From NCBI RefSeq assembly GCF_041248615.1, contig NZ_CP158426.1: a DNA stretch of 64,000 nt. One strand, given 5' to 3'. Both the position numbers and the translations under genes were made by a program. The notes under the pieces were generated by a model. The model made no database searches and was not told the origin of the DNA. It worked only from the letters and a program-made list of their open reading frames with translations. Below are positions 21,690 to 40,785 of this stretch, one piece after another (the stretch's first letter is position 1; each line of letters opens with the position of its first letter). This DNA comes from Escherichia coli (lineage in GTDB: Bacteria > Pseudomonadota > Gammaproteobacteria > Enterobacterales > Enterobacteriaceae).

Positions 21690-21700
21690 TCGTCTGTTCC

Positions 21701-22207: not shown

Positions 22208-22210
22208 TTT

Positions 22211-23431: not shown

Positions 23432-23445
23432 GTGTTACCTGCGAT

Positions 23446-24180: not shown

Positions 24181-25537
24181 CAGGTTCGCCGATGCCGGGC
24201 GGCGCTTCATCTTCGGCATTCTCGATGTCCTCGTCGGTAATGGATGCCCCGATGCCGGTTACGTCAGAATTTTCGCGCAAATCAGTCATAGCGGCTTTCA
24301 GTGTCATCAGACCATCACCCAGCGCTGTACTGATTGCGTTGGTGGTATTTAACGCCACCGTTGAACGATCGACATCAGACATTTGCCAGAGCGGGTTAAA
24401 CTCAAACGTGAAATCATCCGGGAGCGGCTTGCCAAGTTCCGAACGATGCATGATGTCCAGTATCCGCCGCACCGGAAGACGTAAACGTCTCTCCTGCAAC
24501 GAACTGATGCGGTCGTAATAGTTGGCAAGGTCTGCATCACCGGTAGAAAATCCTTTCGGGGACTGTCCAAACAGCCGCACCAGTGGGATACCAACAGCGC
24601 CACTAATCTGTTCTGCAAACTGTGAAAGGATGTCATCCAGACCACTGAAGCTGTACTGATGAGTTTCAAACTTATCCCGCGAGTCCATGAGCGTCATGCC
24701 TTCATTGCTCTGGAACTGTCGAATCAGGTCTATATTCTTCAGCAACGCTTCATACGCAGGACCACCAAGTGCGATAAGCTCGCGTAGCTTCTCCACGCTG
24801 TAGGTACGCAAATGCGCTTTGTAGACCAGCTGCGCCGCGCCGACAGTAGCGCTGTCGAACGCGGTAAGACGATCCCAGATACGCTCTACAACCGACATTC
24901 CCCATTCGTTCTCGGTCATCTTCTGCTGAAATGGCAGCGTGACGCCATCAAAGCGAATCAGTCGACTGTGATGAATGCGCCAGGCAGGAATTCCCGTTGC
25001 TGTGGTCACCACATCGTAAAACTCAGGTTTACCCAGGTCCGGCCCCATATCTTTAATGCGGCGGGTCAGTACCGGGTCAATCATCCAGCGGTCGAGCGGG
25101 AGAATCCCCTTAAACTTGCCCTTACCGATGGTTTCGGGTCGCAGCGGGGTCATTGGTGCCTGCCCCTCAATCATGATGAAACCCACCGCGCCGCCGTAGA
25201 GGCGCGACCATTTCAGCACGTCATTCAGCGCATCCCAGATTTGCAACTCATCCAGTTGTGATTCGAGAATGCCACGATCTTTTGCATCAATTTCCGAAGT
25301 GATGCGAATGCCTTTGCGGGTCATATCATCTGGGATAGCATCGACCGCTTCGCCGATGATCCAGGACGAACGATAGGACCATTCCACCAGCATGCGGTTA
25401 CGACTGGTGAAATTAGCCCGGTAGGTGGATGCTGAGTGCTGGTTAGGTGTCTGCATCCCTACGCGGGCAATAAAATTCTCATAACCATCAGCTGTGGCCT
25501 GCGCAGTTCGCCGCAGGGCTTGTTTGTTTCGTGCCAT
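24071..25537 (-). CDS. portal protein
   Basis: 488 aa immediately downstream of the terminase large subunit with ATGA-type coupling. Confidence 0.7.
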   Translation of the reverse strand: MARNKQALRRTAQATADGYENFIARVGMQTPNQHSASTYRANFTSRNRMLVEWSYRSSWIIGEAVDAIPDDMTRKGIRITSEIDAKDRGILESQLDELQIWDALNDVLKWSRLYGGAVGFIMIEGQAPMTPLRPETIGKGKFKGILPLDRWMIDPVLTRRIKDMGPDLGKPEFYDVVTTATGIPAWRIHHSRLIRFDGVTLPFQQKMTENEWGMSVVERIWDRLTAFDSATVGAAQLVYKAHLRTYSVEKLRELIALGGPAYEALLKNIDLIRQFQSNEGMTLMDSRDKFETHQYSFSGLDDILSQFAEQISGAVGIPLVRLFGQSPKGFSTGDADLANYYDRISSLQERRLRLPVRRILDIMHRSELGKPLPDDFTFEFNPLWQMSDVDRSTVALNTTNAISTALGDGLMTLKAAMTDLRENSDVTGIGASITDEDIENAEDEAPPGIGEPDDEPQEPSGGNPLSNQPTQDSAGGRRHRKWSLRWFK

Positions 25538-27159
25538 CAGGCCTGTCTCCCTAGCAGCTCCCAGATGTTCAGGGCTGAATTCATTGGGGCATAGTTGATC
25601 ATCACCGAGTCGGCAAGGTTTGGCGATCGGGTTCCATCAGGCTGTTTATCAATAACGATTTTTCCCACACCATTAATGGAATAGGTCGGCTGCGAAAGCT
25701 CGATGATGAGTTTATCTTTGAGTGCCATGCTACTGCTGATTGAGATGATTTCGTCCGGGTTGTAAGCCATACCTTCAACCACGGCGCGCCAGGTATTCTG
25801 AAAAAGTTTACGTAACCGCCACCAGCTCTGGGCTTTGGCGTTAGCGAAGAAGTCCTTGTTCAGACGTGCGGCTTGCCCGTTGTCCCCGCGAACAGCTTCA
25901 TCATCTGGATCAAATACCGCGCCACTACCTCGAAACGGTGTGGCGAGTATTGACGGTCGACGCGCAACGTTACGCAGTTCGTTGATAGCGCGTGCATCGC
26001 CGCGAACGCCAGCGCCCAGCCCGTCCTCGTCAAAGCGAAACTCTTCGAGGTTGTCCTGTTCGCAAAAACCGAAAACCTTCTCGACGGACTGATAAATGTC
26101 ACTGCCCACACCGGACCATTCCCGCACATTTTCCAGGAGGAAGCCATGACGGGTGGAAAATGCATTTTTGTCCCTGCCTTCGTCGGCGACATCCATCGCG
26201 CCAAGTCGTTTGCCTGTTGGCTGGATACCCAGTTTGATATGTGCATCAACGGCAGCCTGTACCCATTCGGATGGAATCAGGACGCCTTCCGCTGATGCGC
26301 TGTAGTTCAGATCAAGTTCCTGTGCCACCACCACCGGATTATCGATTTTCTCGCATTCCCTGCGATACCACTCTTCATCCTTGCGAGGATCATCCCGCCA
26401 GTGGAATGTGAATACCGGTATCTTCCCGCCATGACGCTTCTGAGCGAACGGGTTCGCCATGCCGTTAACTGAACTCAGGTCAATACGGCAACGCGTCGTT
26501 TGTGACAACGCCGCATCAATCAGCAGAGGACGCTGAAGGAATGCAGCCTCATCAACCAGATAAAGCGTGGTACGGTCACCACGACCAATATTATCGCCAG
26601 CCTCGCCTTTGATAACGGCACCAGTTTCAGGAAACTCAACACGCATATATGGCGCGTGCTTCTTCTCGCTCCACGAACCGCGAAACTCTACAGGTAGTGT
26701 TTCCACGAACTTGCGCGCCTTCCAGAACAATGCTTTCGGGTCACCGGTGCTGTCGACGTATTCCTCTTTACGGGAGCCGAAACCGATAACCATTTCTTTG
26801 TTGAAGAGACAAAGCGAGCAGGCCAGTCCGATCGCGGTCCAACTGAGCCCCATTTCACGGGATTTTTCGGTAATACCATTCTCCCTATTGCCCCAGCGTT
26901 CCATAATCCAGTGGATCCACTCCTCCTGCTTAGGGAAGAGTAAAAACGGAATGGTCACCGGCAGGCCATAATCAATATTACGCGGGTCCGTTGTCATGCC
27001 CCAGTCGATGATGAACTGAGCCGGGTTGGTTCGGTAAAACTGTTTTAGTGCTGGCAATATTTCAGGGTTCTGGCGAATGCGCTGTAAGCGTTCCATCCGC
27101 CATTCAAAAACCATCTGGTAATCAGGATTTTTAAAATCGAAGGGGAATGGTAACGGCAT
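25537..27159 (-). CDS. terminase large subunit
   Basis: 540 aa with ATPase and nuclease-type regions; follows the small subunit. Confidence 0.8.
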
Positions 27160-27161
27160 AC

Positions 27162-27713
27162 TTAGCCCATCATTTTTCTATACGCCTCTGCAGCCTGCTC
27201 CGGCGTTAAGTTGGTAATTTCTGTTCTGACTGGTCCTCCATCAGCGCCAGTCACTTCATTTTTGACGTTGTCTTTAAACGCCTGAACAGAAACATGACGC
27301 CCAAGCAACTCAAGGTTTTTAACCTTATCAGGCCATTTGATTTTCTTCAGAAGTGCGGCGCTATCTGCGGATACCATCTCCATGACATCCATTCCTGATA
27401 GCGTTGTGCGCCATACCTTAGGCCAGTCTTTAATGGGTTTTAGATCACCGTTTTGCAGGAGAATGTCGAGCACATCCATCTGGTCGATTTCAATAAGGCG
27501 ATTAAGTACATATTCTGCATTAATACCAACAAGATCATTGCGTTGCGCTTTCAGTTCAGCGATTCTGAATTGTATGTCAGGTTTTGACAGGTTTTCGGAT
27601 GCGGTACGGTTAGCTGTCTTTGCGCTGTACCCCGCCCGAATAGCCGCTTGCGTGGCGTTTAAATCGATGAGGTACTCGCGACAGAACATTTCTTGCTTGT
27701 CGGTGAGTGCCAT
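27162..27713 (-). CDS. terminase small subunit
   Basis: Start [15 protein letters not shown]..., typical small terminase N-terminus; ATG at 27713. Confidence 0.75.
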
Positions 27714-27782
27714 TACTTTTCCTAACACTGAGGTAATTTATTCTTGGACAGTTACTACATAACTATCAATGCAATACAAATC

Positions 27783-27932
27783 ATGCTTGCGAAGAGCAAT
27801 GGTTTTTACTTGATCGCCTGGTCTAATCAAAACCGCACAGCAAGCTCGAAAGAAGAGCTTGCTCGTATTTTGGCGTCAGAATTTAGTATCACTAATCTCG
27901 AAGCTACCAACTACGTTGCCGATCTGAACTAA
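27783..27932 (+). CDS. small hypothetical ORF antisense to the late operon
   Basis: 49 codons from ATG at 27783; no recognisable motif. Confidence 0.2.
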   Translation: MLAKSNGFYLIAWSNQNRTASSKEELARILASEFSITNLEATNYVADLN

Positions 27933-28114
27933 CTTTTTTGCGGCCATCAAATCGGAACTGCTGTAGTTGATGGCCAATCATTCCTGCTAGCTAATTCGTT
28001 ACTCTGTTGTTTATTCTGCAGGTTTTTCTGTCTACTCTGCAGGTATCTTCAACGACTCATTCCAAATGGTCAGGTGGTTATTGTGCGCTGAGATGCGCGT
28101 TGAAATTCAGATGT

Positions 28115-28140
28115 GAAAAGGCCCCGCTAAAAGCGAGGCC
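28115..28140 (-). terminator. rho-independent terminator after the unknown gene downstream of Rz
   Basis: Reverse-strand hairpin GGCCTCGC-TTTTA-GCGGGGCC followed by UUUU. Confidence 0.5.
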
Positions 28141-28157
28141 ATAAATCACTTGATATC

Positions 28158-28532
28158 TTACTGAGAACGCTGGAGTAATCCGCGCTGAGCGAGAACTAGA
28201 ACAATGTCATAAGACCCTTGCCTGTCTTTATAGCAAGTTTTATCAACTAACTCAGCTTTGCTAATTCCGGGTAAATCAAGAATCAGATTCGCAACTTCAA
28301 TTGCCCTTTGGTACAACTTACCGATCTTTTTCTCCCCATGATGTGGTTTTACATTCTTCAGATAACCGCTATCCGCCAGAGCGAGAAACGTTGCCCTTGG
28401 GCATCCCTTCTTTCTTGCCGATTCGCTTTCTGTAACCTCAGCGACAGCAGCATCCCATGCATCACGCGGGGATATTGAATTATCAGCAACCAAATAATAA
28501 GCAATTAAAGCGGCGCGCGCGTATTGAGACAT
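28158..28532 (-). CDS. hypothetical protein between the lysis cassette and terminase genes
   Basis: 124 codons from ATG at 28532 (MSQYARAALIAYYLV...); lower G+C by eye; own terminator. Confidence 0.5.
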   Translation of the reverse strand: MSQYARAALIAYYLVADNSISPRDAWDAAVAEVTESESARKKGCPRATFLALADSGYLKNVKPHHGEKKIGKLYQRAIEVANLILDLPGISKAELVDKTCYKDRQGSYDIVLVLAQRGLLQRSQ

Positions 28533-28570
28533 AATGCATCCATATACAAAAATCTTATGATAAGACTTTT

Positions 28571-29014
28571 CTAATATGAACACTGTGATCTCACATACTC
28601 TTGCAGGCCATTCAATTGGTTAGTTATGGTTTCGATGCGCTCTCTGAGAACGAAATAATCCCGTTGAGCGGTGTCAGTAAGTCTGGGGCTGGCGCCATCA
28701 TCCACGCCGGAGGCGGCGGTGGTTTTATGCATGTCCGGACAGACTGCTTTGACGCGCAGCCACTTACGACCAGCAGAAACATCAGCACGAATACTTTCGA
28801 TAGTCGCGTTAGCATCAGCAAGCTCCTTTGTGTATCTGGCGTCGAGTTCTGCTACATCACGTTGACGCTTCTGCATGTCAGCGATGATGTACGTGGCTTT
28901 ATCGCGCTGTTCTTTATAGGTAATGGCGTTATCACGGTAATGATTAACAGCCCATGACAGACAGACGATGATGCAGATAACCAGAGCGGAGATAATCGCG
29001 GTTAACCTGCTCAT
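28571..29014 (-). CDS. Rz: i-spanin Rz
   Basis: N-terminal TM segment then coiled-coil periplasmic domain; overlaps endolysin stop. Confidence 0.75.
28624..28821 (-). CDS. Rz1: o-spanin Rz1 lipoprotein, nested in the +1 frame of Rz
   Basis: Lipobox LLVVSGC and proline-rich mature region [11 protein letters not shown]. Confidence 0.7.
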
Positions 29015-29508
29015 TGCTGCCCCCACAAACAGACTTCACGCTCAATCTCACGGCGAGTCATCAGCCCTTTCCATTGCTTACCGCCAGCGTATGTCCAGCG
29101 ACGTAGCTGGTCACATGCGCCTTTGATATCGCCCTGGTTTATTTTGCGAAGAAGCGTCGATGTTCTGAAATTGCCAGCACCCACGTTGTAGACGAACGAG
29201 TAAAGAGCGCCGCGCGTTGTTTCCGGTATATCGACTTTGATGTACGGGTTAATTTGTCTGGCGACCGTGGCAAGGTCTTTATTCAGGAGGGCTTTGCATT
29301 CTGCTTCGGTATACGTTTTACCGGGAATGATGTCTTTTCCTGTATGCCCGTGACATACAGTCCATACGCCAACGATATCTTTGTATGGTATGTAGCTGAC
29401 ACCTTCCAGACCATCGTTACCACCTGGACCAGTGATTAACACTGATGCTATAGCAATAGCCCCGCCACCAATAGCAGCTGCAACAGCTTTTCGTAATGAT
29501 GGAGGCAT
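29011..29508 (-). CDS. R: SAR endolysin (lysozyme), phage 21 R-like
   Basis: 165 aa; N-terminal Gly/Ala-rich signal-anchor-release segment [20 protein letters not shown] then lysozyme domain. Confidence 0.85.
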
Positions 29509-29723
29509 TATTCACCTCTCGCAGCCTTTCTTCTGTCTTCTCTGATTTTGAAGTACAGATTTGTCAGATAAGTCAAAAAGCCCAGAACTAGACTTCCCAG
29601 CACACCAATTGCAGCCCACTGTGACGGACTGACCTGATCCAACCACTGTAAAAACCAGTATCCCGCACTACCAGCGGATGTTCCGTAGGCAATGCCAGTA
29701 GAGATTTTGTCCATTGATTTCAT
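29508..29723 (-). CDS. S: pinholin/antiholin S with dual start, phage 21 S-like
   Basis: 71 aa [29 protein letters not shown]... with two TM segments and Met1/Met4 dual-start motif. Confidence 0.85.
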
Positions 29724-29841
29724 AGCAACGCCTCCGCAAGTAACGGATTGCGTAGTTCTTATATTGGGAAGGGGAAAAAAGAAGGCCGCGGCATAACTAT
29801 CACTGATGAGTTCAGGATAGCCAGTGGCTACGGCTCAGTTA

Positions 29842-29917
29842 TGGTGCTGGTTAACGGACTTGAACCGCTACCCATTCGCTTACAAGGCGACTGCTCTACC
29901 ATTGGAGCTAAACCAGC
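29842..29917 (-). tRNA. tRNA-like gene, anticodon UGU (Thr) by manual folding
   Basis: 76-nt cloverleaf: acceptor GCTGGTT/AACCAGC, D arm GCTC-CAATGGTA-GAGC, anticodon loop CTTGTAA (U33, A37), T arm AGCGG-TTCAAGT-CCGTT, 3' ACCA; one anticodon-stem mismatch. Confidence 0.55.
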
Positions 29918-29922
29918 ATGTT

Positions 29923-29997
29923 TGGCGGGACAGCGTGGACTCGAACCACGATAAGAAGGTTAACAGCCTTCCGTAATGACCTTTATACGACTGACCC
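29923..29997 (-). tRNA. tRNA-like gene, anticodon GUU (Asn), possibly degenerate
   Basis: Anticodon arm GAAGG-CTGTTAA-CCTTC and T arm CGTGG-TTCGAGT-CCACG are perfect; acceptor stem has one mismatch and the D stem is short. Confidence 0.45.
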
Positions 29998-30001
29998 AAA
30001 T

Positions 30002-30043
30002 AAAAAAAGCCACCGTTGCAACTTAAGAGTCACTAACGGCAGC
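30002..30043 (-). terminator. tR'-like terminator downstream of Q
   Basis: Reverse-strand hairpin followed by U7 just upstream of the tRNA genes. Confidence 0.45.
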
Positions 30044-30088
30044 TTATGCCAATAGTGTTGCTCATTTGCTCAATGATGTCAACACGTT

Positions 30089-30577
30089 CTATGCTACATG
30101 TTTAATTTTCTCTACACGTTTCCGATTTTTAAACGCACTATCCAGAACCGGGTAAATCATAAACAACGAGGCATTAAGGATTTCGTCAACTTCCCGTCGA
30201 CAGGTTGCGAGCGATGGTTTTTGAATGCGCCCGCCGCCACGGCATAACATCTTGCGAGGTCTTGCGACGCGATGATAGTAAGATGCAATGGCGTGCTTGG
30301 AAGAGCCATGAGCGTAGTAGCTGAGGAGGATTCCAAAGGCTTTCTTGTCAATGTACATGACGGAATCGACGACCTGAGAAATCAACATTCCATCATCATC
30401 ATTACACATTGGCCTTGTCATAACTCTTCCCGGCTCTACGCTCTCCATGAACTTCGCTATTACGCTGCTCATGCGCTTTTCCAGACGACCTGAATAAACC
30501 CATGCGCCCCACAGTTCAAGCCAGCCATTCAGCCACTCATGCTGTTCTTTGGTGAGGTTTAGTTCTCTTATGCCCAC
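30089..30577 (-). CDS. Q: late gene antiterminator Q (non-lambda type)
   Basis: 162 aa, GTG start at 30577; Cys-containing C-terminal region; occupies the Q position between nin genes and the lysis cassette. Confidence 0.65.
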
Positions 30578-31124
30578 GCGCCTTCTCCCTGTACCTGAAT
30601 CAATGTGAGATTTCCGCAGAACACTGCCCCAGTATCGATATACATCTGGTTGGCAAATTTGAGTGGTTTCACTGCTGGCGTATGACCAAAGATAAACGTG
30701 TCCGCGCCTTTAATTTCTTTAACGATCCCGTCTTGTGAGTTGCTGATTCGTTCGCGGTTCCAGATTACCTGCTGATGATCAACTGGCTTTCCAAATTCGT
30801 ATTCGTCACAAGGATAATCGGCGTGGCAGATGACATATTTTTTACCTTTGCTCACCAGTTCGATGATTAACGGAAGTTCTTCTGCTTTATGGGCAAGAGC
30901 TTTAGCCAGAATTTCTTTGTCGTAATCGAGATTAAAGAACCAGCCACCGCCATTAAGCAGCCAGTGATTAACGTTTCCACGCTCTGATAAGCCATCAATC
31001 ATCATTTGTTGTCGAATCCAATCGTATCCAGTTTGTTCATAAGGTTCGTGTAGCATCCGTGCAGATCGCCAACCACCCAAATATTTCGGTATTTGCTGCC
31101 ATCAATTCTTTCGTAGATATTCAT
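30568..31124 (-). pseudogene. ninI: ninI (lambda Ser/Thr phosphatase) disrupted by an internal deletion and frameshift
   Basis: N-terminal 40 codons ([40 protein letters not shown]) end at TGA 31002..31004; the C-terminal 160 aa ([15 protein letters not shown]...) lie in another frame; the GDxVDRG and GNHE motif region is absent. Confidence 0.6.
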
Positions 31125-31732
31125 GCAGCCTCACTTCTGCTGTTTCGCAGTTTTTTAAGTTTCTGTTGATACTCCGCCTTGATGGCCCTGCACTCTTCGA
31201 CAGTCCAGCGATGGCGGTTATGGTTTGATTCGATTTCGTCTACTGCTTCCTGCCCGATGCGGTTAATCAGTTCGACGCGATACGGAACGAGATTTCCGCT
31301 TTTGTGCTGGTTGCACACCACGCATTGCTTGTGAATATTGCGTTCATCAAATCGGAGTTGAGGCGCCGCAGCAGTTGTCCGGTAATGCCCGGCATCCCAC
31401 TGAGCAGACGTGAGCGTTCCGCACGAGATACATGGTAAGTCGCGGTCTCTTTCTCTGATGAAGGCGTTTACGGCTTGTTGGGCTTGTTTAATCCAGTAAC
31501 TGCGGGGCTTTAAGGCGAGTTTTCGAATCTTAAGTTTATCTTTCTGTTTCTGCTCCTCTCGTCGTCGTTTCTTCTCTGCTGCCTTTTCCGCTTTTTCGCG
31601 TTCTTTGCTTCGTCGTTCGAGTGCTATCTTGGTTCCACACTCTGGAGAGCACCACCACTGATTGGCGAATGCAGGGTGAAACCATTCCCGACATTCATCG
31701 TTTTTACATCGTCTTCGCGCTGGTTTAGCCAT
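31121..31732 (-). CDS. ninG: NinG (Rap) recombination-promoting nuclease
   Basis: 203 aa [33 protein letters not shown]..., matches my recollection of lambda NinG. Confidence 0.85.
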
Positions 31733-31755
31733 CGTCTTCTTCCTCGTACATCGAG

Positions 31756-31896
31756 CTATTCGGATCGCTCATCAGTTCTGCGCAGCAATGCGCAGCACAC
31801 GTGAACTTCAAGCACATGCAGCTTCTGACCGCAGTTAGCGCACGTTAAAGCTCGCTCGACGCTTCCTTGTTCGTAACTTCGATTTGGGTCAATCAC
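31756..31896 (-). CDS. ninF: NinF-like small Cys-rich protein with altered C-terminus (apparent frameshift relative to lambda NinF)
   Basis: GTG start overlapping ninE stop; encodes ...[23 protein letters not shown] then diverges; the lambda-like C-terminus [20 protein letters not shown] is in another frame. Confidence 0.45.
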
Positions 31897-32075
31897 CTTG
31901 TATTCCTCGCACGTTCTCTAAGCCACCGGATATCCCACAGGTGAGCCGTGTAGTTGAAGGTTTTTACGTCAGATTCTTTCGGGATTGGCTTGCGTTTATT
32001 TCTGGAGCGTTTCGTTGGAAGGTATTTGCAGTTTTCGCAGATGATGTCGGTGAAACTTCGTCGCTGTCGCCTCAT
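31893..32075 (-). CDS. ninE: NinE
   Basis: 60 aa [60 protein letters not shown]. Confidence 0.75.
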
Positions 32076-32599
32076 GCCGCCCTCCTGACGCCCTGCCCGA
32101 TCGCCATCAATGCCGCTTTGGATACGGTAGTAAACATCCGTCGAGGACTGATGAACGGTCGCCAAATCAGCAGCATGGAGCCTTTGCTGTTTCCCTTCTT
32201 CTCCAGCCCTGTCGATGGTTCGATAAAATTAATCCGTCCATCAGTGATAATGCGAACTTCGTCGACACTCTCCAGAGCCTTGCTGAACCATCCGACTGAC
32301 ATATCCTCTGGCACAAGCATAACTACCGTCTGTCGCTGTTGTATGCACTGCTCAGCGGCTTTTTCCACCCACGGCCTGATATTGCTGTACGGCGGGTTAT
32401 TCCAGATTGCACCGTGGCTTACCCACTCAGAATTTAGCGCGTCGTCAGCCTCAGTTAGCCAGTGAGCGCACAGAGCATTTTTGTCGCTCGCTGCCGAATC
32501 CAGCCAGAATCCAAACTCAATATCCAGTGCATCAAAAAGCCAAAGCGGCGTTTGCCAGCAGTCCTTGTCGTGTGCTGGCGTATTTGATTTGATAGTCAT
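32072..32599 (-). CDS. phage DNA N6-adenine methyltransferase (Dam-like), in the position of lambda ninC/ninD
   Basis: 175 aa from ATG at 32599; catalytic motif NPPY ([11 protein letters not shown]). Confidence 0.75.
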
Positions 32600-33036
32600 G
32601 CAGCCCGATCTCCCCATCGCGCTTTCCATTCGAGAGCTAGTCGCGCTTCGTCTGACCACTTAACGCCACGCTCTGTACCGAATGCCTGTATAAGCTCTAA
32701 TAGCTCCGCAAATTCGCTTACACGCATCCTGCTGGTTGACTGGCCTATTACCACAAAGCCATTCCCGGCAAGGTTAGGAACAACGTCCTGCTGCTTTAAT
32801 GCTGCTGTAAAAACGCACTTCCAGCTTTCTGCATCCAGCCAGCGACCATGCCATTCAACCTGACGAGAGACGTCACCAAGGCAAGCCCAAAGCTTTCGAT
32901 TCTGGTCTAAGCTGCGGTTGCGTTCCTGAATAGTTACTACGATTGGTTTGGTTGGGTCTGGAAGGATTTGCTGTACTGCGTGAATAGCGTTCTGCTGATG
33001 TGCTGGAGATCGAATTTCAAAGGTTAGTTTTTTCAT
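32596..33036 (-). CDS. ninB: NinB (Orf) recombination mediator
   Basis: 146 aa MKKLTFEIRSPAHQQNAIHAVQQILPDPTKPIVVTIQERNRSLDQNRKLWA... Confidence 0.85.
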   Translation of the reverse strand: MKKLTFEIRSPAHQQNAIHAVQQILPDPTKPIVVTIQERNRSLDQNRKLWACLGDVSRQVEWHGRWLDAESWKCVFTAALKQQDVVPNLAGNGFVVIGQSTSRMRVSEFAELLELIQAFGTERGVKWSDEARLALEWKARWGDRAA

Positions 33037-33116
33037 GACTTCCCTCTCCCCCAAATAAAAAGGCCTGCGATTACCAGCAGGCCTGTTATTAGCTCAGTGA
33101 TGTAGATGGTCATCTT

Positions 33117-33389
33117 TTAACTCCATATACCGCCAATACCCGTTTCATCGCGGCACTCCTTAAAAATTAGGTTCGTGCTCATCTTTCCTTCCCGTTCTTC
33201 CTTGGTAGCAAACCGGTAATACACCGTTCGCCAGACCTTACCTTCGATAACCAGAAGACCTGCCCGTGCCATTTTAGCCGCGGCCTGATTTATGCTGGTT
33301 ACTGTTGCGCCTGTTAGCGCGGCAACGTCCGGCGCACAGAAGCTATTATGCGTCCCCAGGTAATGAATAATTGCCTCTTTGCCCGTCAT
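33117..33389 (-). CDS. ren: Ren exclusion-protection protein
   Basis: 90-aa ORF immediately downstream of P; sequence recalled as lambda Ren-like; true start may be slightly upstream. Confidence 0.75.
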   Translation of the reverse strand: MTGKEAIIHYLGTHNSFCAPDVAALTGATVTSINQAAAKMARAGLLVIEGKVWRTVYYRFATKEEREGKMSTNLIFKECRDETGIGGIWS

Positions 33390-34087
33390 ACACTTGCTCC
33401 TTTCAGTCCGAACTTAGCTTTGAGTTCTGCGATCTTCGCCAGAGCCTGTGCACGATTTAGAGGTCTACCGCCCATAACAGGAAGTTGTTTTACTGGTTCA
33501 GGTATCGTCTCACCACGGTTAATTCGCGCTGTCATACAGGTCAGTTCATCGGCAGCCTTGCGCCGTAATTCCGCGTCAGTCAGCGCATTGGCCCGCATGT
33601 TCTGGTACAAGTTGGTAACCAACCAGTAATGCGCGTTCGATTTCCACGGATAAGACTCTGCATCCGGATACAGGCCACGCTTCCGGCAATACTCGTAAAC
33701 CATATCAACCAGCTCGCTGACGTTTGGCAGCCCGGCGTTAACGGATGCTTCTTCCCGGCACCAGGCGACAAACTGCCCGGGTGATGGCAGGAATGGTCGA
33801 TTCTGCCGACGGGCTACGCGCATTCCTGCGTTAACCTGTTCCATTGTGGTGATCCCGTTTTCCCGGAAAGCCAGAACCCACTGGCGGCGGATTTCGTTCA
33901 GTTCATTCTGGTCACGGTTAGCCAGGCTCGCCGGGAAAGTTGCCAGTAACTGGCTGAACACACCGTTGATGATCTGCGCTACCTGCTGTACCTGCGGCTT
34001 TTCGTCGTACTGTTCCGGCATGTTGTTGGCGATCCGACGCATCTGCTCACGGTCAAAGTTAACCATCTGTGCGGCGATGTTTTTCAT
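33386..34087 (-). CDS. P: replication protein P (DnaB helicase loader)
   Basis: 233 aa MKNIAAQMVNFDREQMRRIANNMPEQYDEKPQVQQ..., lambda P-like. Confidence 0.9.
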   Translation of the reverse strand: MKNIAAQMVNFDREQMRRIANNMPEQYDEKPQVQQVAQIINGVFSQLLATFPASLANRDQNELNEIRRQWVLAFRENGITTMEQVNAGMRVARRQNRPFLPSPGQFVAWCREEASVNAGLPNVSELVDMVYEYCRKRGLYPDAESYPWKSNAHYWLVTNLYQNMRANALTDAELRRKAADELTCMTARINRGETIPEPVKQLPVMGGRPLNRAQALAKIAELKAKFGLKGASV

Positions 34088-34983
34088 AAATCCACCCCGT
34101 AAATCCAGTCAGTGTTTGTCAGGTCGAGTTTTGGTTTGCTGGCTATCATGCCTGCCTGTTGCTTGTTACGGTTGATTTCGAGCTGGGTCCACTTGTCGCG
34201 GAGTTTGGCCGGACTCAGCACGTTACCGGACCAGAAGTTGTCCTGGCATGCCCAGCGGAACAGTACACACATATCGCGGTGGTTACGTCCGTCACGTTCA
34301 CGCATCAGGCGGATATCGTTAGCCCACCCTGCAAAATTCGGTTTTCTGGCTGATGGCGCGATGGTCTTCACCATGTCAAACATCCACTCTGCGGCGGTCA
34401 GGTCTTCTGCTGTCCCCCACTTGCTGCCGCTCTGAATTGCAGCATCCGGTTTCACCACAGGAAGATCGTTTTCTGGCTGGTCAGAGGATTCGCCAGAATT
34501 CTCGGACGAATAATCTTTTCTTTTTTCTTTTGTAATAGTGTCTTTTGTGTCCCTCTGTTTTGAGGGATAGCAATCCCCCAATTTGAGGGATGTTTTATCC
34601 CTCGTTTTAGGGGATTTTCCCTCGTTTTGAGGGATACACCATTCTGAGATGTTTTTATTTGGTCCAAACATGCCGCCTTGCTGCTTGATAATATTCATTC
34701 TGACGAGTTCTAACTTGGCTTCATTGCACCGTTTGACAGGTAACTTTGTAATCTCGCTAAGTTGAGAATCGGTGATTCTGTCCATTGGTTTATTCCACCC
34801 ATAGGTTTTACGCAGAATGGCAAGCAGCACTTTAAACTGTCGCTTGGTCAGATCTGCGCCTGAATAAGCCTCAAGCAGCATATTTGATAGTCTGGCGTAA
34901 CCATCATCGAGATCTGCCACATTACGCTCCTGTCCGGCAAAGTTACCTCTGCCGAAGTTGAGTATTTTTGCTGTATTTGTCAT
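34084..34983 (-). CDS. O: replication initiator O
   Basis: 299 aa from ATG at 34983, MTNTAKILNFGRGNFAGQERNVADLDDGYARLS...; contains the iteron array. Confidence 0.9.
   Translation of the reverse strand: MTNTAKILNFGRGNFAGQERNVADLDDGYARLSNMLLEAYSGADLTKRQFKVLLAILRKTYGWNKPMDRITDSQLSEITKLPVKRCNEAKLELVRMNIIKQQGGMFGPNKNISEWCIPQNEGKSPKTRDKTSLKLGDCYPSKQRDTKDTITKEKRKDYSSENSGESSDQPENDLPVVKPDAAIQSGSKWGTAEDLTAAEWMFDMVKTIAPSARKPNFAGWANDIRLMRERDGRNHRDMCVLFRWACQDNFWSGNVLSPAKLRDKWTQLEINRNKQQAGMIASKPKLDLTNTDWIYGVDL
34550..34635. repeat. ori-lambda iterons (four ~19-bp direct repeats) inside O, next to an AT-rich tract
   Basis: Four repeats of the form TCCCTC-N-GAGGGAT; adjacent AT-rich tract 34500..34549. 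Confidence 0.75.
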
Positions 34984-35017
34984 AATGACTCCTGTGGATT
35001 GATCCAGTCTTTCTACA

Positions 35018-35296
35018 TCAGGCCTCAAAACTGTTGCAGCAGTCTTGAGGCTTTTCTTTTGTCAGCACCATGGCTACTTTCTTTGCTAGCTTTGCTAATT
35101 CCTCGTCTTCAACACCCCACTCCAGCACAGCCAGAAGCATGGCCATCTTTGGGATAAAGCTGTCTTTCCATCGCGAAATTTGCGATTCATTAATCCCTAA
35201 TGCATCAGCAACCTTTCGCTGACCACGTACAGCAATTCGATTCAGGATGTTGCTTGTGATTGCATTCGCTTTCTTGCGAGTACTTGTAAGTTGCAT
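35018..35296 (-). CDS. cII: CII transcriptional activator
   Basis: 92 aa from ATG at 35296 with RBS AAGGAAA; HTH ...ALGINESQISRWKDSFIPKMAMLLAVLEWGV resembles lambda CII. Confidence 0.75.
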   Translation of the reverse strand: MQLTSTRKKANAITSNILNRIAVRGQRKVADALGINESQISRWKDSFIPKMAMLLAVLEWGVEDEELAKLAKKVAMVLTKEKPQDCCNSFEA

Positions 35297-35352
35297 ATGT
35301 AAGTATTTCCTTAACAAATAAGAAGTTATACGCACCAACTGATGCGCGTTGT

Positions 35353-35398
35353 ATTCCCGCATTTCGGCGGGAATAAGGACCATGACTGTTAAAGAGCA
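35353..35398 (-). promoter_or_regulatory. nutR (boxA plus boxB hairpin)
   Basis: Reverse strand TGCTCTTTAACA (boxA-like) then hairpin TTCCCGCCGAAATGCGGGAA; same boxB sequence as nutL. Confidence 0.6.
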
Positions 35399-35404
35399 AT
35401 TTGC

Positions 35405-35590
35405 TTATGCCGCTTTGCGATAAGCACTTTCTTGATACTTCAGGGCGCCAGCTGTAACGACTTCCAGTCGATAGGCGTCTTTCTCTGGGATGACTTCCTT
35501 CCACTGAGAAACTGCTGCATCGCTAATGCCTAACGCTTTAGCTACCGCACGCTGGGTTCCGAAGTGGTCGATAACATCTTTCTTGTACAT
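35405..35590 (-). CDS. cro: Cro repressor
   Basis: 61 aa with HTH ...QRAVAKALGISDAAVSQW...; divergent from cI across the operator region. Confidence 0.7.
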   Translation of the reverse strand: MYKKDVIDHFGTQRAVAKALGISDAAVSQWKEVIPEKDAYRLEVVTAGALKYQESAYRKAA

Positions 35591-35670
35591 AGACTCGCTC
35601 CGAAATTAAAGAACACTTAAATTATCTATCAAAGGAATCTTAAGTCAAGTTTATTTAAGATGTCTTAACT
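35591..35670. promoter_or_regulatory. OR operator region with pR and pRM
   Basis: TTAA-centred inverted repeats (ATCTTAAGT...ATTTAAGAT); reverse-strand -35 TTGACT (35643..35648) and -10 ATAATT (35620..35625) with 17-bp spacing, upstream of cro. Confidence 0.6.
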
Positions 35671-36321
35671 ATGAATACACAACTGATGGGTGAGCGTATT
35701 CGCGCTCGCAGAAAAGAACTTAAGATTAGGCAGGCTGCCCTTGGCAAGATGGTTGGCGTGTCTAATGTTGCTATTTCCCAATGGGAGCGTTCTGAAACTG
35801 AGCCCAATGGCGAAAACCTATTGGCTTTAGCCAAGGCTTTACAGTGCTCCCCTGATTACTTGTTGAAAGGAGAAGATAGTCTTTCAAACATTGCCTATCA
35901 CAGCAGGCATGATCCAAGAGGTTCGTATCCTCTAATTAGTTGGGTAAGCGCAGGATGTTGGATGGAAGCTGTAGAGCCATATCATAAGCGTGCAATAGAT
36001 AACTGGTACGATACAACCGTAGATTGTTCAGAAGATTCGTTTTGGCTGGACGTAAAGGGTGATTCGATGACGGCTCCAGCCGGTCTTAGCATCCCGGAAG
36101 GGATGATAATACTAGTCGATCCTGAAGTAGAACCTCGTAATGGGAAGCTGGTAGTGGCAAAGCTCGAAGGAGAAAACGAGGCAACTTTCAAGAAGTTAGT
36201 TATTGATGCTGGCAGAAGGTTTCTAAAACCACTTAACCCACAATATCCGATGATTGAGATCAACGGGAACTGCAAAATCATCGGTGTAGTTGTCGATGCA
36301 AAAATAGCAAACCTTCCATAA
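35671..36321 (+). CDS. cI: CI repressor (HTH plus S24 LexA-like autopeptidase domain)
   Basis: 216 aa; N-terminal HTH ...QAALGKMVGVSNVAISQWER...; C-terminal domain ...GDSMTAPAGLSIPEGMIILVD...KIIGVVV resembles the 434/21-type repressor. Confidence 0.85.
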   Translation: MNTQLMGERIRARRKELKIRQAALGKMVGVSNVAISQWERSETEPNGENLLALAKALQCSPDYLLKGEDSLSNIAYHSRHDPRGSYPLISWVSAGCWMEAVEPYHKRAIDNWYDTTVDCSEDSFWLDVKGDSMTAPAGLSIPEGMIILVDPEVEPRNGKLVVAKLEGENEATFKKLVIDAGRRFLKPLNPQYPMIEINGNCKIIGVVVDAKIANLP

Positions 36322-36345
36322 GGGGCATTCGCCCCTTTTTTTCTT
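36321..36345 (+). terminator. rho-independent terminator after cI
   Basis: Hairpin AGGGGCATTCGCCCCT followed by TTTTTTT, overlapping the cI stop. Confidence 0.55.
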
Positions 36346-36365
36346 TCCTTTAAAAATCAAAGCAA

Positions 36366-36447
36366 AACTTAAACTTCGCAATAAAATTTAAGTTTTCTTC
36401 AAAAACACTCTTGACCAATAATTAAAGAAATCTTAAATTTAAGTCAT
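36366..36447. promoter_or_regulatory. OL operator region with pL
   Basis: Inverted repeats AAACTTAAA...TTTAAGTTT and perfect palindrome CTTAAATTTAAG; -35 TTGACC (36411..36416) and -10 TAAATT (36434..36439), 17-bp spacing, directed toward N. Confidence 0.55.
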
Positions 36448-36484
36448 CAGCAGGACGCTGGTAGCCAAACGGAACAGATTGGCA

Positions 36485-36527
36485 GGCTCTTTAACATTGA
36501 TGGGATTGTCCCGCCGAAATGCGGGAA
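36485..36527 (+). promoter_or_regulatory. nutL (boxA plus boxB hairpin)
   Basis: GCTCTTTAACA then hairpin TCCCGCCGAAATGCGGGA, upstream of N. Confidence 0.6.
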
Positions 36528-36633
36528 CCAAAGAGTAGTTGGCTTTGGGGTGACGTGAAGTGCAGCTGCACGACGGCAACCGGAAGATAAGCACCCGGCG
36601 CGTCACCGCCAAAGTCAATCATCGGAGGTCAAC

Positions 36634-36933
36634 ATGGCAGTAGTCATTACATATCTGGCTGACGATAACGCCAGAAATCGCCGCAGAGCACGCAGACAGG
36701 CTCAACGTGAACAGGCAATGCAAGAACAGCGACTGGCGCGAAAGATTGCGCTAAAGCTCTCTGGTTGCGTCAGAGCAGATAAAGCAGCATCACTCGGAAG
36801 CCTTCGCTGCAAGAAGGCAGAAGAGGTCGAGAGTAAACGGAATCGTATTTACTACCGCAAGCCACGCAGTGAAATGGGTGTGACTTGTGTTGGTCGCCAG
36901 AAAATGAAATTAGGCAGTAAGCCACTTATTTGA
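36634..36933 (+). CDS. N: antiterminator N (phage 21-like)
   Basis: 99 aa with N-terminal arginine-rich motif NARNRRRARRQAQRE and C-terminus ...YYRKPRSEMGVTCVGRQKMKLGSKPLI resembling N proteins. Confidence 0.75.
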   Translation: MAVVITYLADDNARNRRRARRQAQREQAMQEQRLARKIALKLSGCVRADKAASLGSLRCKKAEEVESKRNRIYYRKPRSEMGVTCVGRQKMKLGSKPLI

Positions 36934-36944
36934 GAGGAATTAAT

Positions 36945-37568
36945 ATGTCATCAATCCGCTTAACTACGAGAATGAAAGAGGAAATCGCTCGTAACGCTTT
37001 AATTAAGTCTGGGGTTTTCACTGAACTTGAAGAAGTAACAAAGTTAAAGAACCAGCTTGCACTTGACGCCAGAGTTATTGCGTTTGGCGGTAAAAAGAAA
37101 ACTGAGGAAGTGGATCAGTTATCATCCAAGTTGGTAGCTATAAGTGAAGAACTTGAAAAGATGGGATGTTCATTTTACTCATACGATGTTCGTTCTACTT
37201 CAATTTATCTGACTGTATCTGGCAGAAGGGTTGGATGGCTTTCATATGGGAAAGACGGCAACGGCGAAGATATATTGCTCCCTGCTCCGAACAAAGATAA
37301 ATGCATGTTTAGCGCAGAACACGAAATAACAAAAAGGTTTGATGAAATCTGCGCATTGCAACAAAAACTTGAAGCCAAGAAAAAGGATATCGAATCAAAT
37401 GTATGGGCTGCTTTGAACTCAGTCACAACAGTTAAGCGACTTATTGAAGTTTGGCCTGAAAGCAAAGAGTTGCTACCAAAAGAAGCAGATAAAGCAAGTA
37501 CAGCACTTCCTGCTTTACGGGTAGAAGATTTGAATAAGATGATTGGACTTCCTTCCGAGGCCGCATAG
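36945..37568 (+). CDS. hypothetical protein (207 aa) immediately downstream of N
   Basis: ATG at 36945 with RBS GAGAGGA; no motif I can assign; followed by a terminator. Confidence 0.5.
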   Translation: MSSIRLTTRMKEEIARNALIKSGVFTELEEVTKLKNQLALDARVIAFGGKKKTEEVDQLSSKLVAISEELEKMGCSFYSYDVRSTSIYLTVSGRRVGWLSYGKDGNGEDILLPAPNKDKCMFSAEHEITKRFDEICALQQKLEAKKKDIESNVWAALNSVTTVKRLIEVWPESKELLPKEADKASTALPALRVEDLNKMIGLPSEAA

Positions 37569-37584
37569 TCGGCCTTTATTTTTG
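37558..37584 (+). terminator. rho-independent terminator after the post-N gene
   Basis: Stem AGGCCG/CGGCCT with loop CATAGT followed by TTTATTTTT. Confidence 0.5.
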
Positions 37585-37605
37585 GCATAAACAACAGAGG
37601 TGAAT

Positions 37606-37740
37606 ATGAACGCAGTTGAATTTGCAAAATGGATGGCAGAGCAAGATATCACAGGAGCCGACGAAAAGGCTGTGTACTACATGGCTCTGCTATGGATTCA
37701 CAAAGCAAAAGAGGCTGCAAATGCTCTTGGAGGTGAGTGA
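37606..37740 (+). CDS. small hypothetical protein (44 aa)
   Basis: ATG at 37606 with RBS AGAGGTGA; stop overlaps the next ORF start. Confidence 0.35.
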   Translation: MNAVEFAKWMAEQDITGADEKAVYYMALLWIHKAKEAANALGGE

Positions 37741-37925
37741 TGTGCGAGTTTTATGAAGCAGATATCAAACGCCCAGAAATGGCAAGTGATGCGACATTAC
37801 GTGATTACTTCGCAGCAAAGTTCATGCAGGGAGTTTGTGCAAATCCAGACAGGCTTTATGACAACGAACCACTTGCTAAAGAAGCTTATGCGATGGCAGA
37901 CGCAATGCTCAAAGCTCGCGAATAA
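37740..37925 (+). CDS. small hypothetical protein (61 aa)
   Basis: ATG at 37740 overlapping the previous stop (ATGA-type coupling). Confidence 0.4.
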   Translation: MCEFYEADIKRPEMASDATLRDYFAAKFMQGVCANPDRLYDNEPLAKEAYAMADAMLKARE

Positions 37926-38059
37926 GCACTGTGTATTCATTCCAACGAGTGAATACACGGAGCAATGTCGCTCGTAACTAAACAGGAGCCGACTTGTTCT
38001 GATTATTTGAAATCTTCTTTGCCCTCCGATGTGAGGGCAATTTTTTTGATGGAGGATAT

Positions 38060-39025
38060 ATGAGTGAAGTAACAGATTTAGTTGTTATTGAAAAAGCAAA
38101 TGCAATGACTGTATTTCAGTCTGCCGACCAGATTGAAGAAATCCTTCAAAAGGTTGAACGTGAAGTTATGTCCTTTGTGCCTGATATCACAACGGCAAAG
38201 GGCAGAAAGGAGATCGCTTCTCTGGCGTATAAAGTTGCGCAGACGAAAACATATCTCGATGGTCTTGGCAAAGACCTTGTTGCTGAACTGAAGGAAATTC
38301 CAAAGCTAATTGATGCCAACCGCAAGACAGTGCGTGATCGCCTTGATGAGCTGAAAGCCAAGGCACGCCAGCCTCTTACTGATTATGAGGAAGAACAGGC
38401 GCGGATTAAAGCCGAAGAGGAAGCTAAGGCAGCAGCTGAAGCCCTCGCAAAGCAAATTGAGTCTGACCATGAAATAGCGATTTTGATGGATCGCGAATTT
38501 GACCGCAAAAGAGAAGAGGCAAGACTCAAAGTGGAGCAGGAAAAGCGAGAGCATGAAGAACTCTTAAAAAGAGAAGCTGAAGAGAAAGCCAGAGCAGAAG
38601 CCGAAGCAAAGGCAAAAGCCGAAATTGAAGCAGCAGCAAGGCGAGAAGCAGAAGCTAAGGCAGCAGCGGAACGTGCAGAGCGTGAACGCATTGAAGCCGA
38701 GCAACGAGCACAGCGCGAAGCAAAAGAGGCAGCAGAACGAGCTGAAAGAGAAAAGCAGGCAGCAATTGAAGCAGAACGCCGAAAAGCACAGGAGGAGGCT
38801 GAACGAATCCGTCGCGATGCTGAAGCAAAAGAGCAAGCCAGAATAGCAGAAGAAAAAAGAATCAAGGAAGAAGAGCGTAGAGCAAAGGATAAAGCTCACC
38901 GGAAAGAAGTAAATAACAAAATACTTGCTGACCTTATCAAGGTTGGCGCATCAGAAGATGTTGCTAAAAATATCATAACAGCCATCGTAAAAGGCGAAGT
39001 ATTCGCAACAAAAATAACCTACTAA
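38060..39025 (+). CDS. coiled-coil protein with E/K/A/R-rich low-complexity core, probable recombination-module component
   Basis: 321 aa; central ~150 aa of AEAKAKAEIEAAARREAEAKAAAERAER-type repeats; upstream of the Sak4-like ATPase. Confidence 0.5.
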   Translation: MSEVTDLVVIEKANAMTVFQSADQIEEILQKVEREVMSFVPDITTAKGRKEIASLAYKVAQTKTYLDGLGKDLVAELKEIPKLIDANRKTVRDRLDELKAKARQPLTDYEEEQARIKAEEEAKAAAEALAKQIESDHEIAILMDREFDRKREEARLKVEQEKREHEELLKREAEEKARAEAEAKAKAEIEAAARREAEAKAAAERAERERIEAEQRAQREAKEAAERAEREKQAAIEAERRKAQEEAERIRRDAEAKEQARIAEEKRIKEEERRAKDKAHRKEVNNKILADLIKVGASEDVAKNIITAIVKGEVFATKITY

Positions 39026-39049
39026 TAAAACCAACATAAGGAACCACCC

Positions 39050-39196
39050 ATGATTTACGCAATCGCGGGAGGCGCTCGCATGGGTGCCTTCCAACTAAAT
39101 GAATCTTTACTTGAACGAATCACCCGTAAATTACGTGACGGATGGAAACGCCTTATCGACATACTTAATCAGCCAGGAGTCCCCAAAAATGGATAA
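39050..39196 (+). CDS. small hypothetical protein (48 aa)
   Basis: ATG at 39050 with RBS AAGGAACC; below the ORF-track length cutoff. Confidence 0.3.
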   Translation: MIYAIAGGARMGAFQLNESLLERITRKLRDGWKRLIDILNQPGVPKNG

Positions 39197-39487: not shown

Positions 39488-39495
39488 GGCAAATT

Positions 39496-40760: not shown

Positions 40761-40785
40761 ATTATTGCAAAATAAGGATTCCATT

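Follow-up and report, generated by a model that had tools for sequence, protein, structure and literature searches.

The nin genes of lambdoid phages have been described as dispensable, closely packed with ATGA overlaps and much shuffled (PMC8022706; PMC4118853). In phage lambda (J02459), the ninR region sits between P and Q as an ATGA-linked chain of non-essential genes, with ninC and ninD following ninB and with ninH between ninG and ninI. Phage 434 (OL657226) carries ren, ninB, a DNA adenine methyltransferase gene, ninE, ninF, ninG and ninI and lacks ninC, ninD and ninH. Here, we compared with these phages the nin region in a window of 64,000 nucleotides, the whole stretch of Escherichia coli DNA that was analysed.

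A scan of the window for the lambda att core GCTTTTTTATACTAA gave two matches (0.01 expected), both on the minus strand. The core at 2536..2550 marks the prophage end adjoining ybhB, with YbhB identified beside it, and the core at 44885..44899 marks the end adjoining int and ybhC. Together they bound a prophage of 42.35 kb. The attλ prophages of NRZ14408 (NZ_LT599825), PRO_A-1407, AB66 and many draft genomes are like this one and occupy the same att site, and they are called siblings below. The genes O, P and ren lie upstream of the nin block and Q lies downstream, all on the minus strand. [quoted passage not shown] Our explanation as a whole, which takes the region as the ninR accessory block of a lambdoid prophage of about 42 kb at attλ of the E. 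coli chromosome, is held with high confidence.

ninB, ninE, ninG and Q are intact, all on the minus strand. ninB (orf, 32596..33036, 146 aa) is 99.3% identical to lambda NinB over 146 of 146 residues by tblastn, and the TGA that ends it shares bases with the ATG of the methyltransferase gene. ninE (31893..32075, 60 aa) is 91% identical to lambda NinE by tblastn, while its match to the NinE family NF007245 of NCBIfam (E 7.8e-9, 35.3 bits) is under the curated cut-off of 88. ninG (rap, 31121..31732, 203 aa) is 97% identical to lambda NinG over 204 residues by tblastn, and its DNA is identical to the NRZ14408 copy, which is annotated there as 'recombination protein NinG'. The phage-21-type Q (30089..30577), annotated in phi458, SfI, NRZ14408 and KS-NP019, has a GTG start with its own Shine-Dalgarno sequence and closes the nin block; window positions 30000..31008 are 100% identical to KS-NP019 DNA. 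ATGA stop/start overlaps occur between ninB and the methyltransferase gene (32596-32599), between the methyltransferase gene and ninE (32072-32075) and between ninG and ninI (31121-31124). These overlaps chain the nin genes together, and after induction their transcription is from pR.

The genes shared with lambda (ren, ninB, ninE, ninF, ninG and ninI) have 95-97% DNA identity. By BLASTN, window positions 33400..32596 correspond to lambda 40269..41084 (ren, ninB) and positions 32068..31121 to lambda 42097..43043 (ninE, ninF, ninG), while the 527 bp between them (32595..32069) stand where lambda has ninC, ninD and the opening 7 nt of ninE. No counterpart of lambda 43044..43232 (ninH) exists, and the ninG stop meets the ninI start directly at 31121..31124. 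No tblastn match to lambda NinC, NinD, NinH or Q was found anywhere in the 64-kb window. The initial annotation had stated that an NPPY-motif N6-adenine methyltransferase replaces ninC and ninD and that ninI follows ninG with no ninH, and both statements were confirmed. Its description of the region as rearranged was not, since phage 434 natively has its modules in this order. The window and 434 are colinear at 96.8% nucleotide identity from ren to ninI, and the sole gaps in the alignment are an 11-nt and a 1-nt indel and a 115-nt deletion. Because they are native in phage 434, the methyltransferase in place of ninC and ninD and the missing ninH are neither lesions nor recent insertions. Lambda is the wrong reference for this nin region. 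The layout is a standard phage-434-type mosaic, and what the region displays is ordinary mosaicism and pseudogenisation. The stretch from ninI to the methyltransferase gene is present at 80% or more in one place in 279 of 5,426 complete E. coli genomes.

The gene at 32072..32599 (minus strand) is intact and encodes a predicted phage orphan N6-adenine DNA methyltransferase of 175 aa. Its translation contains NNPPY, a form of the catalytic motif (D/N)PPY, and matches TIGR01712 phage_N6A_met with 265.9 bits (cut-off 97.05) over profile positions 1-165 of 165, Pfam PF05869 Dam with 7e-65 over positions 1-167 of 169, and the orphan-MTase models of PADLOC. GATC specificity is known among members of the TIGR01712/PF05869 family. 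Phages 434 and SfI have the same gene at this position, and the identical protein was found on at least 1000 contigs. A search of the PDB with the protein found no homologue, and a phrase search of the literature for nin-region methyltransferases found nothing. The enzyme would act late to place m6A on phage DNA, and for such a predicted Dam-family protein a role in anti-restriction protection is plausible. Two sibling prophages carry a nonsense mutation in this gene, so the methyltransferase is under no obvious selection in lysogens. A link to M.EcoGIX, M.EcoGI or M.EcoGII was considered and rejected, as M.EcoGIX is plasmid-borne, while the characterised prophage enzymes M.EcoGI and M.EcoGII belong to an unrelated beta class of 349 aa.

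The lesions are confined to the frame disruptions. The first of them, absent from the initial annotation, is in ren (33117..33389, minus strand), a pseudogene as shown by aligning its DNA to that of lambda, 434 and NRZ14408 and by tblastn, which matches Ren in two frames. A deletion of 11 bp flanked by GAGTG repeats, with its junction near 33154..33158, leaves the last ~16 codons out of frame. The exact 90-aa product was found on 104 contigs. The second is in ninI, where window positions 31115..31005 correspond by BLASTN to lambda 43233..43343 and positions 31008..30575 to lambda 43455..43888, with a 4-nt overlap; 115 nt are missing (lambda 43344..43458) and the frame is shifted. The deletion junction at 31005..31008 (minus strand) retains one CAAA, a sequence present twice, 115 bp apart, in the intact gene. 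Both deletions probably arose by misalignment between the repeats during replication or recombination. PGAP marks the ren and ninI alleles as 'frameshifted' in NRZ14408 and PRO_A-1407.

As a result of the deletion, the ~221 codons expected in a single frame are divided between two. The N-terminal fragment (31002..31124, minus strand) has 40 codons, matches positions 6-43 of the NCBIfam profile PRK11439 and ends at a TGA made by the deletion. The C-terminal fragment (30568..31005, minus strand) has 145 aa in another frame and matches residues 77-221 of the lambda Ser/Thr phosphatase NinI (PDB 1G5B; ~97% identity, E 1e-94) and profile positions 82-218. Its ATG overlaps the stop of the N-terminal fragment as ATGA, and gene-calling programs treat the fragment as a gene of its own, of 145 aa. 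Among the motifs of PPP-family Ser/Thr phosphatases, motif I (GDxHG) is present as GDLHG in the 40-aa fragment, while motif II (GDxVDRG) and motif III (GNHE) have been deleted. In the protein alignment, lambda NinI residues 41..76 are missing, including GDLVDRG and GNHE, and profile positions 44-81 are unmatched; in the 1G5B phosphatase residues 41-76 are present, whereas the two parts in the window lie in different frames. Judged by its sequence, ninI in the window is a pseudogene of a PPP-family phosphatase and not a member of that family. Since the metal-binding motifs are removed and the gene is split into ORFs of 40 and 145 codons, no active phosphatase would be made. The initial annotation was right about the 40-codon N-terminal part with GDLHG, the change of frame and the loss of GDxVDRG and GNHE; the C-terminal part, put there at about 160 residues, has 145.

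Both alleles are widespread. The exact ninI N-terminal peptide was found on 125 contigs and in 201 collection blocks of the index, and the 145-aa C-terminal fragment on 131 contigs. The identical ninI junction was present in 3 complete genomes and in 12 of 22 fetched loci; an exact-pattern scan of IMG/VR for it found none. The NRZ14408 prophage is 99.87% identical to that of the window over 40 kb and has the same ren and ninI deletions. The host flanks differ from those of the window by 2.5% in PRO_A-1407 (128/5101) and by 2.0% in AB66 (103/5035), with near-identical prophage DNA. More than 100 public assemblies have these ren and ninI alleles, in near-identical attλ prophages of divergent hosts; the alleles are therefore real, and the phage evidently tolerated them as it spread. 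They are old alleles of the phage lineage, carried with the phage into different hosts, and the wide distribution of the ninI allele could come partly from clonal expansion instead of repeated lysogenisation. The prophage probably remained viable despite lesions in non-essential genes, a possibility raised in the initial annotation. Some siblings carry other lesions, namely the methyltransferase nonsense mutation, an ISEc52-associated deletion and an IS21 insertion.

The third lesion is in ninF (31756..31896, minus strand), a pseudogene by alignment and by tblastn in two frames. Its product of 46 aa comprises 34 native and 12 out-of-frame residues, and the native C-terminal 21 codons run on in the other frame to 31725. 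Residues 1..34 and the C-terminal residues of NinF were matched by tblastn in different frames, so that the 56-58 aa with a conserved C-terminal segment in one frame, as in NinF (PF05810), are broken after residue 34. The cause is an extra base with neighbouring substitutions at 31788..31795. On the sense strand the lesion (31779..31797, minus strand) reads TGCTGCGCA-T-TGCTGCGCA, two perfect 9-mers 10 nt apart, while the intact donor-type allele, TGCTCCGAT, reads TGCTCCG-A-T-TGCTGCGCA. Alignment with the lambda nin region together with tblastn therefore bears out the initial annotation that ninI and ninF are each split between frames and that their disruption is genuine. RefSeq calls the truncated 46-aa product 'protein NinF' with no pseudogene flag.

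The lesion in ninF, unlike the other two, is private and occurs in this genome alone. Among ~15 billion proteins the exact 46-aa product was found on one contig only (WP_370144293.1). No carrier was present among 1,576 E. coli genomes having ninF, and exact-pattern scans of IMG/VR and metagenome contigs and the 22 fetched loci gave none. Megablast of E. coli genomes with 41 nt across the lesion returned no match, a search in which the low-complexity filter might mask the repeat. It was redone with a 121-nt query, and the best full-length matches had 97.5% identity over 120 nt and were thus without the lesion.

ninF lies in a tract of ~0.7 kb (31748..32458) over ninF, ninE and the methyltransferase gene that is also private. 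Comparison with the NRZ14408 prophage over 40 kb gave only 51 differing positions, grouped in five patches. The siblings lack these five conversion patches and have an intact lambda-type ninF. Within the tract, 23 differences separate the window from all sibling prophages, and every one is the allele of the P22-like prophage phage_14408_1. A three-way alignment has 53 columns in which the window and NRZ14408 disagree, and in 52 of them the window agrees with phage_14408_1. Conversion of the NRZ14408 lineage instead was rejected, because the NRZ14408 alleles are carried by ten of ten sibling prophages. The tract would have been copied from a co-resident P22-like prophage sharing the methyltransferase–ninE–ninF module. 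phage_14408_1 is co-resident in the closest strain, NRZ14408, and from this closest complete relative we infer such a donor in the present genome, outside the window. The alternatives of decay or recombination offered in the initial annotation are both at work.

The ninF lesion may have arisen in this tract or arrived with it. In the reading we prefer, ninF too was broken by misalignment at a short direct repeat during replication or recombination, when one added base and a substitution made a formerly imperfect 9-mer repeat perfect. It is possible, though doubtful, that the frameshift came without quasi-repeat templating, either from faulty repair of a 7-nt heterology in the conversion heteroduplex or from a donor copy that already had it. 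The heterology (lambda-type TGAGCAC against CTCCGAT of the P22-like type) is the sole short, highly divergent ninF patch in the tract. When gaps are allowed in the three-way alignment, each window base there matches one parent, giving an alternating mosaic of donor and recipient, and the tract is patchy elsewhere, with recipient alleles kept at 31752, 31865, 32102 and 32435. However, the parental alleles are equal in length and simple mismatch correction adds no base; four parental switches are needed within 8 nt; and, compared with the donor allele, both changes exactly copy the adjacent 9-mer. Quasi-repeat templating remains our preferred account but is not the sole route to the ninF sequence.

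It is highly unlikely that the disruptions of ninF, ninI or both are sequencing or assembly artefacts over genes that are intact in the real genome. For ninF, the change is known from a single contig, with no match elsewhere searched, and the sibling assemblies L018-L021 are full of single-base indels. Against this, the change combines a substitution with an insertion outside any homopolymer, and scattered indels relative to NRZ14408 are absent from the rest of the 40 kb, so that an assembly error at ninF is unlikely. For ninI an assembly error is excluded, because many independent assemblies, made in different laboratories, share the identical junction of the 115-bp deletion. We also rejected programmed frameshifting in ninF or ninI, as these genes are normally intact in a single frame and each of the two changes is a simple derived mutation.

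An adapted ninI allele, whose C-terminal fragment is made by termination-reinitiation at the new ATGA and has a non-catalytic function favouring phage spread, is extremely improbable: the deletion does make a canonical ATGA overlap as found throughout the nin operon (PMC8022706), the C-terminal ORF is uninterrupted and more than 125 contigs, from at least three host backgrounds, carry the allele, but a shift of frame is what a random 115-bp deletion is expected to give, motifs II and III are gone with motif I on a separate peptide, other genes of the same lineage decay freely (ren, the methyltransferase nonsense mutation, IS insertions), and the almost identical siblings have had no time for further decay, so that the integrity of the ORF is uninformative on selection. 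It is just as hard to credit that a stably expressed 145-aa half, devoid of most catalytic metal-binding motifs and acting for example as substrate trap or decoy, helped the attλ phage to enter many E. coli lineages.

Recombination between co-resident lambdoid prophages, repeat-mediated slippage and templated frameshifts are general phenomena. The window is one more instance of them: its conversion tracts are short and stay within blocks of shared homology, direct repeats of 4-5 bp flank its deletions, and its complex frameshift perfects a quasi-repeat. The general significance is small. As a worked example of prophage micro-evolution, the locus offers two repeat-mediated deletions that moved with the phage into divergent hosts, and a private ninF frameshift tied to a conversion tract with a nameable donor type, the P22-like prophage of the nearest relative. 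Lambda alone is a poor reference for lambdoid nin regions, in which the exchange of ninC and ninD for a methyltransferase gene and a missing ninH are standard alternative modules. Compared with lambda, the window differs in these modules and in its Q; compared with phage 434, which has intact copies of ren, ninF and ninI and then a lambda-type Q fragment and further genes, it differs by the three lesions and by its phage-21-type Q, tRNA and S21-holin late region.

All genes in 30,000..35,600 lie on the minus strand, in the transcription order cro, cII, O, P, ren, ninB, a 175-aa methyltransferase, ninE, ninF, ninG, ninI and Q, and are followed on the same strand by tRNA-Asn, tRNA-Thr, an S21-type holin and an endolysin. 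BLASTN of the window against lambda (J02459) gave four colinear blocks, namely ren and ninB (33400..32596 = lambda 40269..41084, 95.5%), ninE, ninF and ninG (32068..31121 = lambda 42097..43043, 96.2%, one gap), and the 5' and 3' parts of ninI (31115..31005 = lambda 43233..43343 and 31008..30575 = lambda 43455..43888, respectively). Using tblastn with all lambda nin proteins, NinC, NinD, NinH and lambda-type Q had no match in the 64 kb, and Ren, NinF and NinI were each split across two frames. The four observations of the initial annotation are therefore correct. An NPPY-motif methyltransferase of 175 aa replaces ninC and ninD, being encoded where 527 unrelated bases take the place of these two genes and of the first few bases of ninE; ninG directly precedes ninI, with no BLASTN counterpart of ninH (lambda 43044..43232) in the window; ninI is in two frames and lacks GDxVDRG and GNHE; and the N- and C-terminal segments of ninF are in different frames. 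Neither NinI nor NinF was intact in a single frame in the nucleotide alignment with the lambda nin region.

The ninI lesion is a 115-nt deletion (lambda 43344..43458). Intact ninI contains the repeats ...GACAA[CAAA]AAAGAC... and ...GAG[CAAA]TGATG..., and one CAAA is left at 31005..31008, just as slippage or illegitimate recombination at direct repeats of 4 bp would leave it. In the protein alignment residues 41-76 are gone, GDLVDRG and GNHE among them; positions 44-81 of the NCBIfam phosphatase profile had no match in the window NinI, and the C-terminal 145 residues aligned to 77-221 of the lambda phosphatase structure 1G5B. Since these motifs hold the essential metal ligands and the catalytic histidine of PPP-family phosphatases, an active NinI would not be expected. 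The deletion created a new ATGA (TGA 31002-31004, ATG 31003-31005), and gene callers reported two genes of 40 and 145 aa. The 90%-identity cluster containing the 145-aa fragment also includes unrelated 168-aa 'HNH endonuclease signature motif' proteins, an apparent artefact of how the collection was clustered rather than a biological relationship.

The ren gene (33117-33389) lost 11 bases between GAGTG direct repeats (junction about 33154-33158, AAG[GAGTGTCGCCA]GAGTGCC), causing a frameshift of the last ~16 codons. This third nin-region pseudogene is just beyond the coordinates of the initial annotation, was missed there, and is common to the sibling prophages. The ren and ninI lesions are real, inherited alleles. 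Both genes are "frameshifted" according to PGAP in the prophages at the lambda att site (attλ) of E. coli NRZ14408 and PRO_A-1407-6W-A, so RefSeq siblings already have an annotation for both pseudogenes. Three complete genomes and 12 of the 22 loci compared carry exactly this ninI junction. Exact matches to the 40-aa product were on 125 contigs, to the 145-aa product on 131 and to the 90-aa product (Ren') on 104; the 40-aa product occurred in 201 collection blocks, each time in this prophage setting.

Two lambda att cores (2536..2550 and 44885..44899) bound the prophage between ybhB and ybhC. The host flanks differ by 2.5% (128/5101) from PRO_A-1407 and by 2.0% (103/5035) from E. coli AB66, and the adjoining prophage DNA differs from either only at conversion-patch sites and one or two SNPs. 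Most simply, the phage already had the deletions when it lysogenised different hosts, and the ren and ninI deletions would therefore not prevent phage growth, which fits the non-essentiality of nin genes (PMC8022706). Some members of the lineage show further decay: the AB66 prophage has lost everything from ninG to the early-left region in an ISEc52-associated deletion, and a metagenome-derived sibling (L017) has an IS21-family element in the lysis cassette, between holin and endolysin.

The ninF lesion has a different distribution. Over 40 kb (7332..47335) the window is 99.87% identical to the NRZ14408 prophage, and all 51 differences are in five patches (29920; 31748..32458; 38761..38947; 40754..40780; 42757..43132). 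The NRZ14408 attλ prophage and the P22-like prophage co-resident in that strain, phage_14408_1 (LT599830), have four homology blocks in common, and one block coincides exactly with methyltransferase–ninE–ninF (31730..32605). In a three-way alignment restricted to the shared blocks, the window and NRZ14408 differ in 53 columns; in 52 of these the window has the allele of phage_14408_1, and in one it is unique. Differences from phage_14408_1 in the nin block numbered 6 for the window versus 30 for the NRZ14408 prophage. Because all ten siblings (NRZ14408, PRO_A-1407 and L015-L022) hold the NRZ14408 alleles, the window's lineage is the converted one and the tract is private to it. As the donor is not within the window, we infer the presence of a P22-like donor in this genome. 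The four non-nin patches (tRNA, TolA-like/cIII, and anti-RecBCD to DUF4752 regions) also hold phage_14408_1 alleles, which suggests that short gene conversions between the two prophages took place repeatedly, at each stretch of shared homology.

At one site the lambda-type ninF allele reads GTG TGT GAG CAC TGC TGC (V C E H C C) and the phage_14408_1/KSC207-type allele GTG TGC TCC GAT TGC TGC (V C S D C C). The window has GTGTGCTGCGCATTGCTGCGCAG, with one C>G substitution and one inserted C relative to the donor-type allele. Through these two changes TGCTCCG-A has become TGCTGCGCA and now repeats perfectly the 9-mer that lies 10 nt downstream (31779..31787 and 31789..31797 on the plus strand); the lesion probably arose by a single templated misalignment on this quasi-repeat. 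Alternatively, the 7-nt heterology between the two alleles may have been faultily processed during conversion, or the lesion may have been inherited from an already mutated donor. It was found in 0 of 1,576 complete E. coli genomes with ninF (best full-length matches 97.5% over 120 nt) and was absent from IMG/VR, metagenome contigs and all the loci compared. A sequencing or assembly artefact is unlikely, because the change is outside any homopolymer and the surrounding 40 kb has no scattered indels. This private frameshift within a tract converted between prophages is a neat example, but the processes behind it are known and it comes as no surprise. The product has 46 aa (34 native residues and 12 foreign), and its stop at 31756 lies 23 nt upstream of the ninG start, versus a normal 8-nt overlap. 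This exact protein occurred once in a 15-billion-protein collection, as WP_370144293.1, which RefSeq names 'protein NinF' without a pseudogene flag.

The methyltransferase (32072..32599, minus strand, start MTIKSNT...) matched the whole NCBIfam equivalog TIGR01712 "phage N-6-adenine-methyltransferase" (265.9 bits, cut-off 97), Pfam PF05869 Dam (7e-65) and PADLOC orphan-methyltransferase models, and its translation contains NNPPY. No solved structure related to it by sequence was found. At least 1,000 public contigs encode an identical protein. In PRO_A-1407 and L017 the gene carries a nonsense mutation (window-equivalent 32554G>A). ATGA overlaps join its start to the ninB stop and its stop to the ninE start, a linkage typical of nin genes (PMC8022706). 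The well-studied prophage enzymes M.EcoGI and M.EcoGII are of a different class (349-aa beta). Relatives in the methyltransferase's own family methylate GATC. The enzyme would modify phage DNA late in infection, and protection from restriction is a plausible role.

On induction, transcription from pR would run through the nin chain to Q, N-antiterminated through a tR2-like hairpin between ren and ninB. A putative GC-rich hairpin followed by a T-run (GGCCTGCTGGTAATCGCAGGCCTTTTTATTT) was noted by eye at the lambda tR2 position (33058-33095, minus strand). NinB/Orf, the methyltransferase, NinE, NinG/Rap and Q are intact, and Ren, NinF and the NinI phosphatase are predicted to be lost. Q starts with GTG at 30577 behind a GGAG-type Shine-Dalgarno sequence of its own, so it should be expressed whether or not ninI is translated.

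Elsewhere in the prophage, the stretch from the ybhB-side att core to the tail-fibre genes contains three cargo genes (3198-4373, plus; 4411-5748, minus; 6141-7166, plus). They encode two Acyl_transf_3 (PF01757) membrane acyltransferases, reminiscent of the O-antigen acetylases of serotype-converting phages, and one 445-aa ORF with no match in Pfam, NCBIfam or PADLOC. The gene at 36930-37568 (plus), adjoining the cI-type repressor, had no NCBIfam or PADLOC match in the window; RefSeq names it 'Nmad5 family putative nucleotide modification protein' in the NRZ14408 sibling, and in some siblings its place is taken by SieB and an N peptide.

The sequence observations of the initial annotation are confirmed and its interpretation is partly supported; its reading of a rearranged nin region was not borne out. 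Lambda is simply the wrong reference here, and gene shuffling, gain and loss in the nin interval have been described (PMC4118853). A partial match to the region was present in 2,314 of 5,426 complete E. coli genomes, and at least 80% of it in one place in 279. Many of these matches span 2,215 bp, with no NinH among the named features; the window's 2,101 bp would come to this length without the additional base in ninF and with the 115 bp that ninI has lost. SfI, Sf6, HK544, Sf101, IME10 and several Stx phages have the same methyltransferase adjoining ninB. The arrangement is already known as the standard order of phage 434, held by hundreds of prophages: the annotated 434 genome has ren, a small orf, ninB, a DNA adenine methyltransferase, ninE, ninF, ninG and ninI, without ninH. 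The window aligns colinearly with this genome at 96.8% over 33400..31005 and again over 31008..30575, and the alignment is broken only by indels of 11 nt and 1 nt and by the 115-nt gap.
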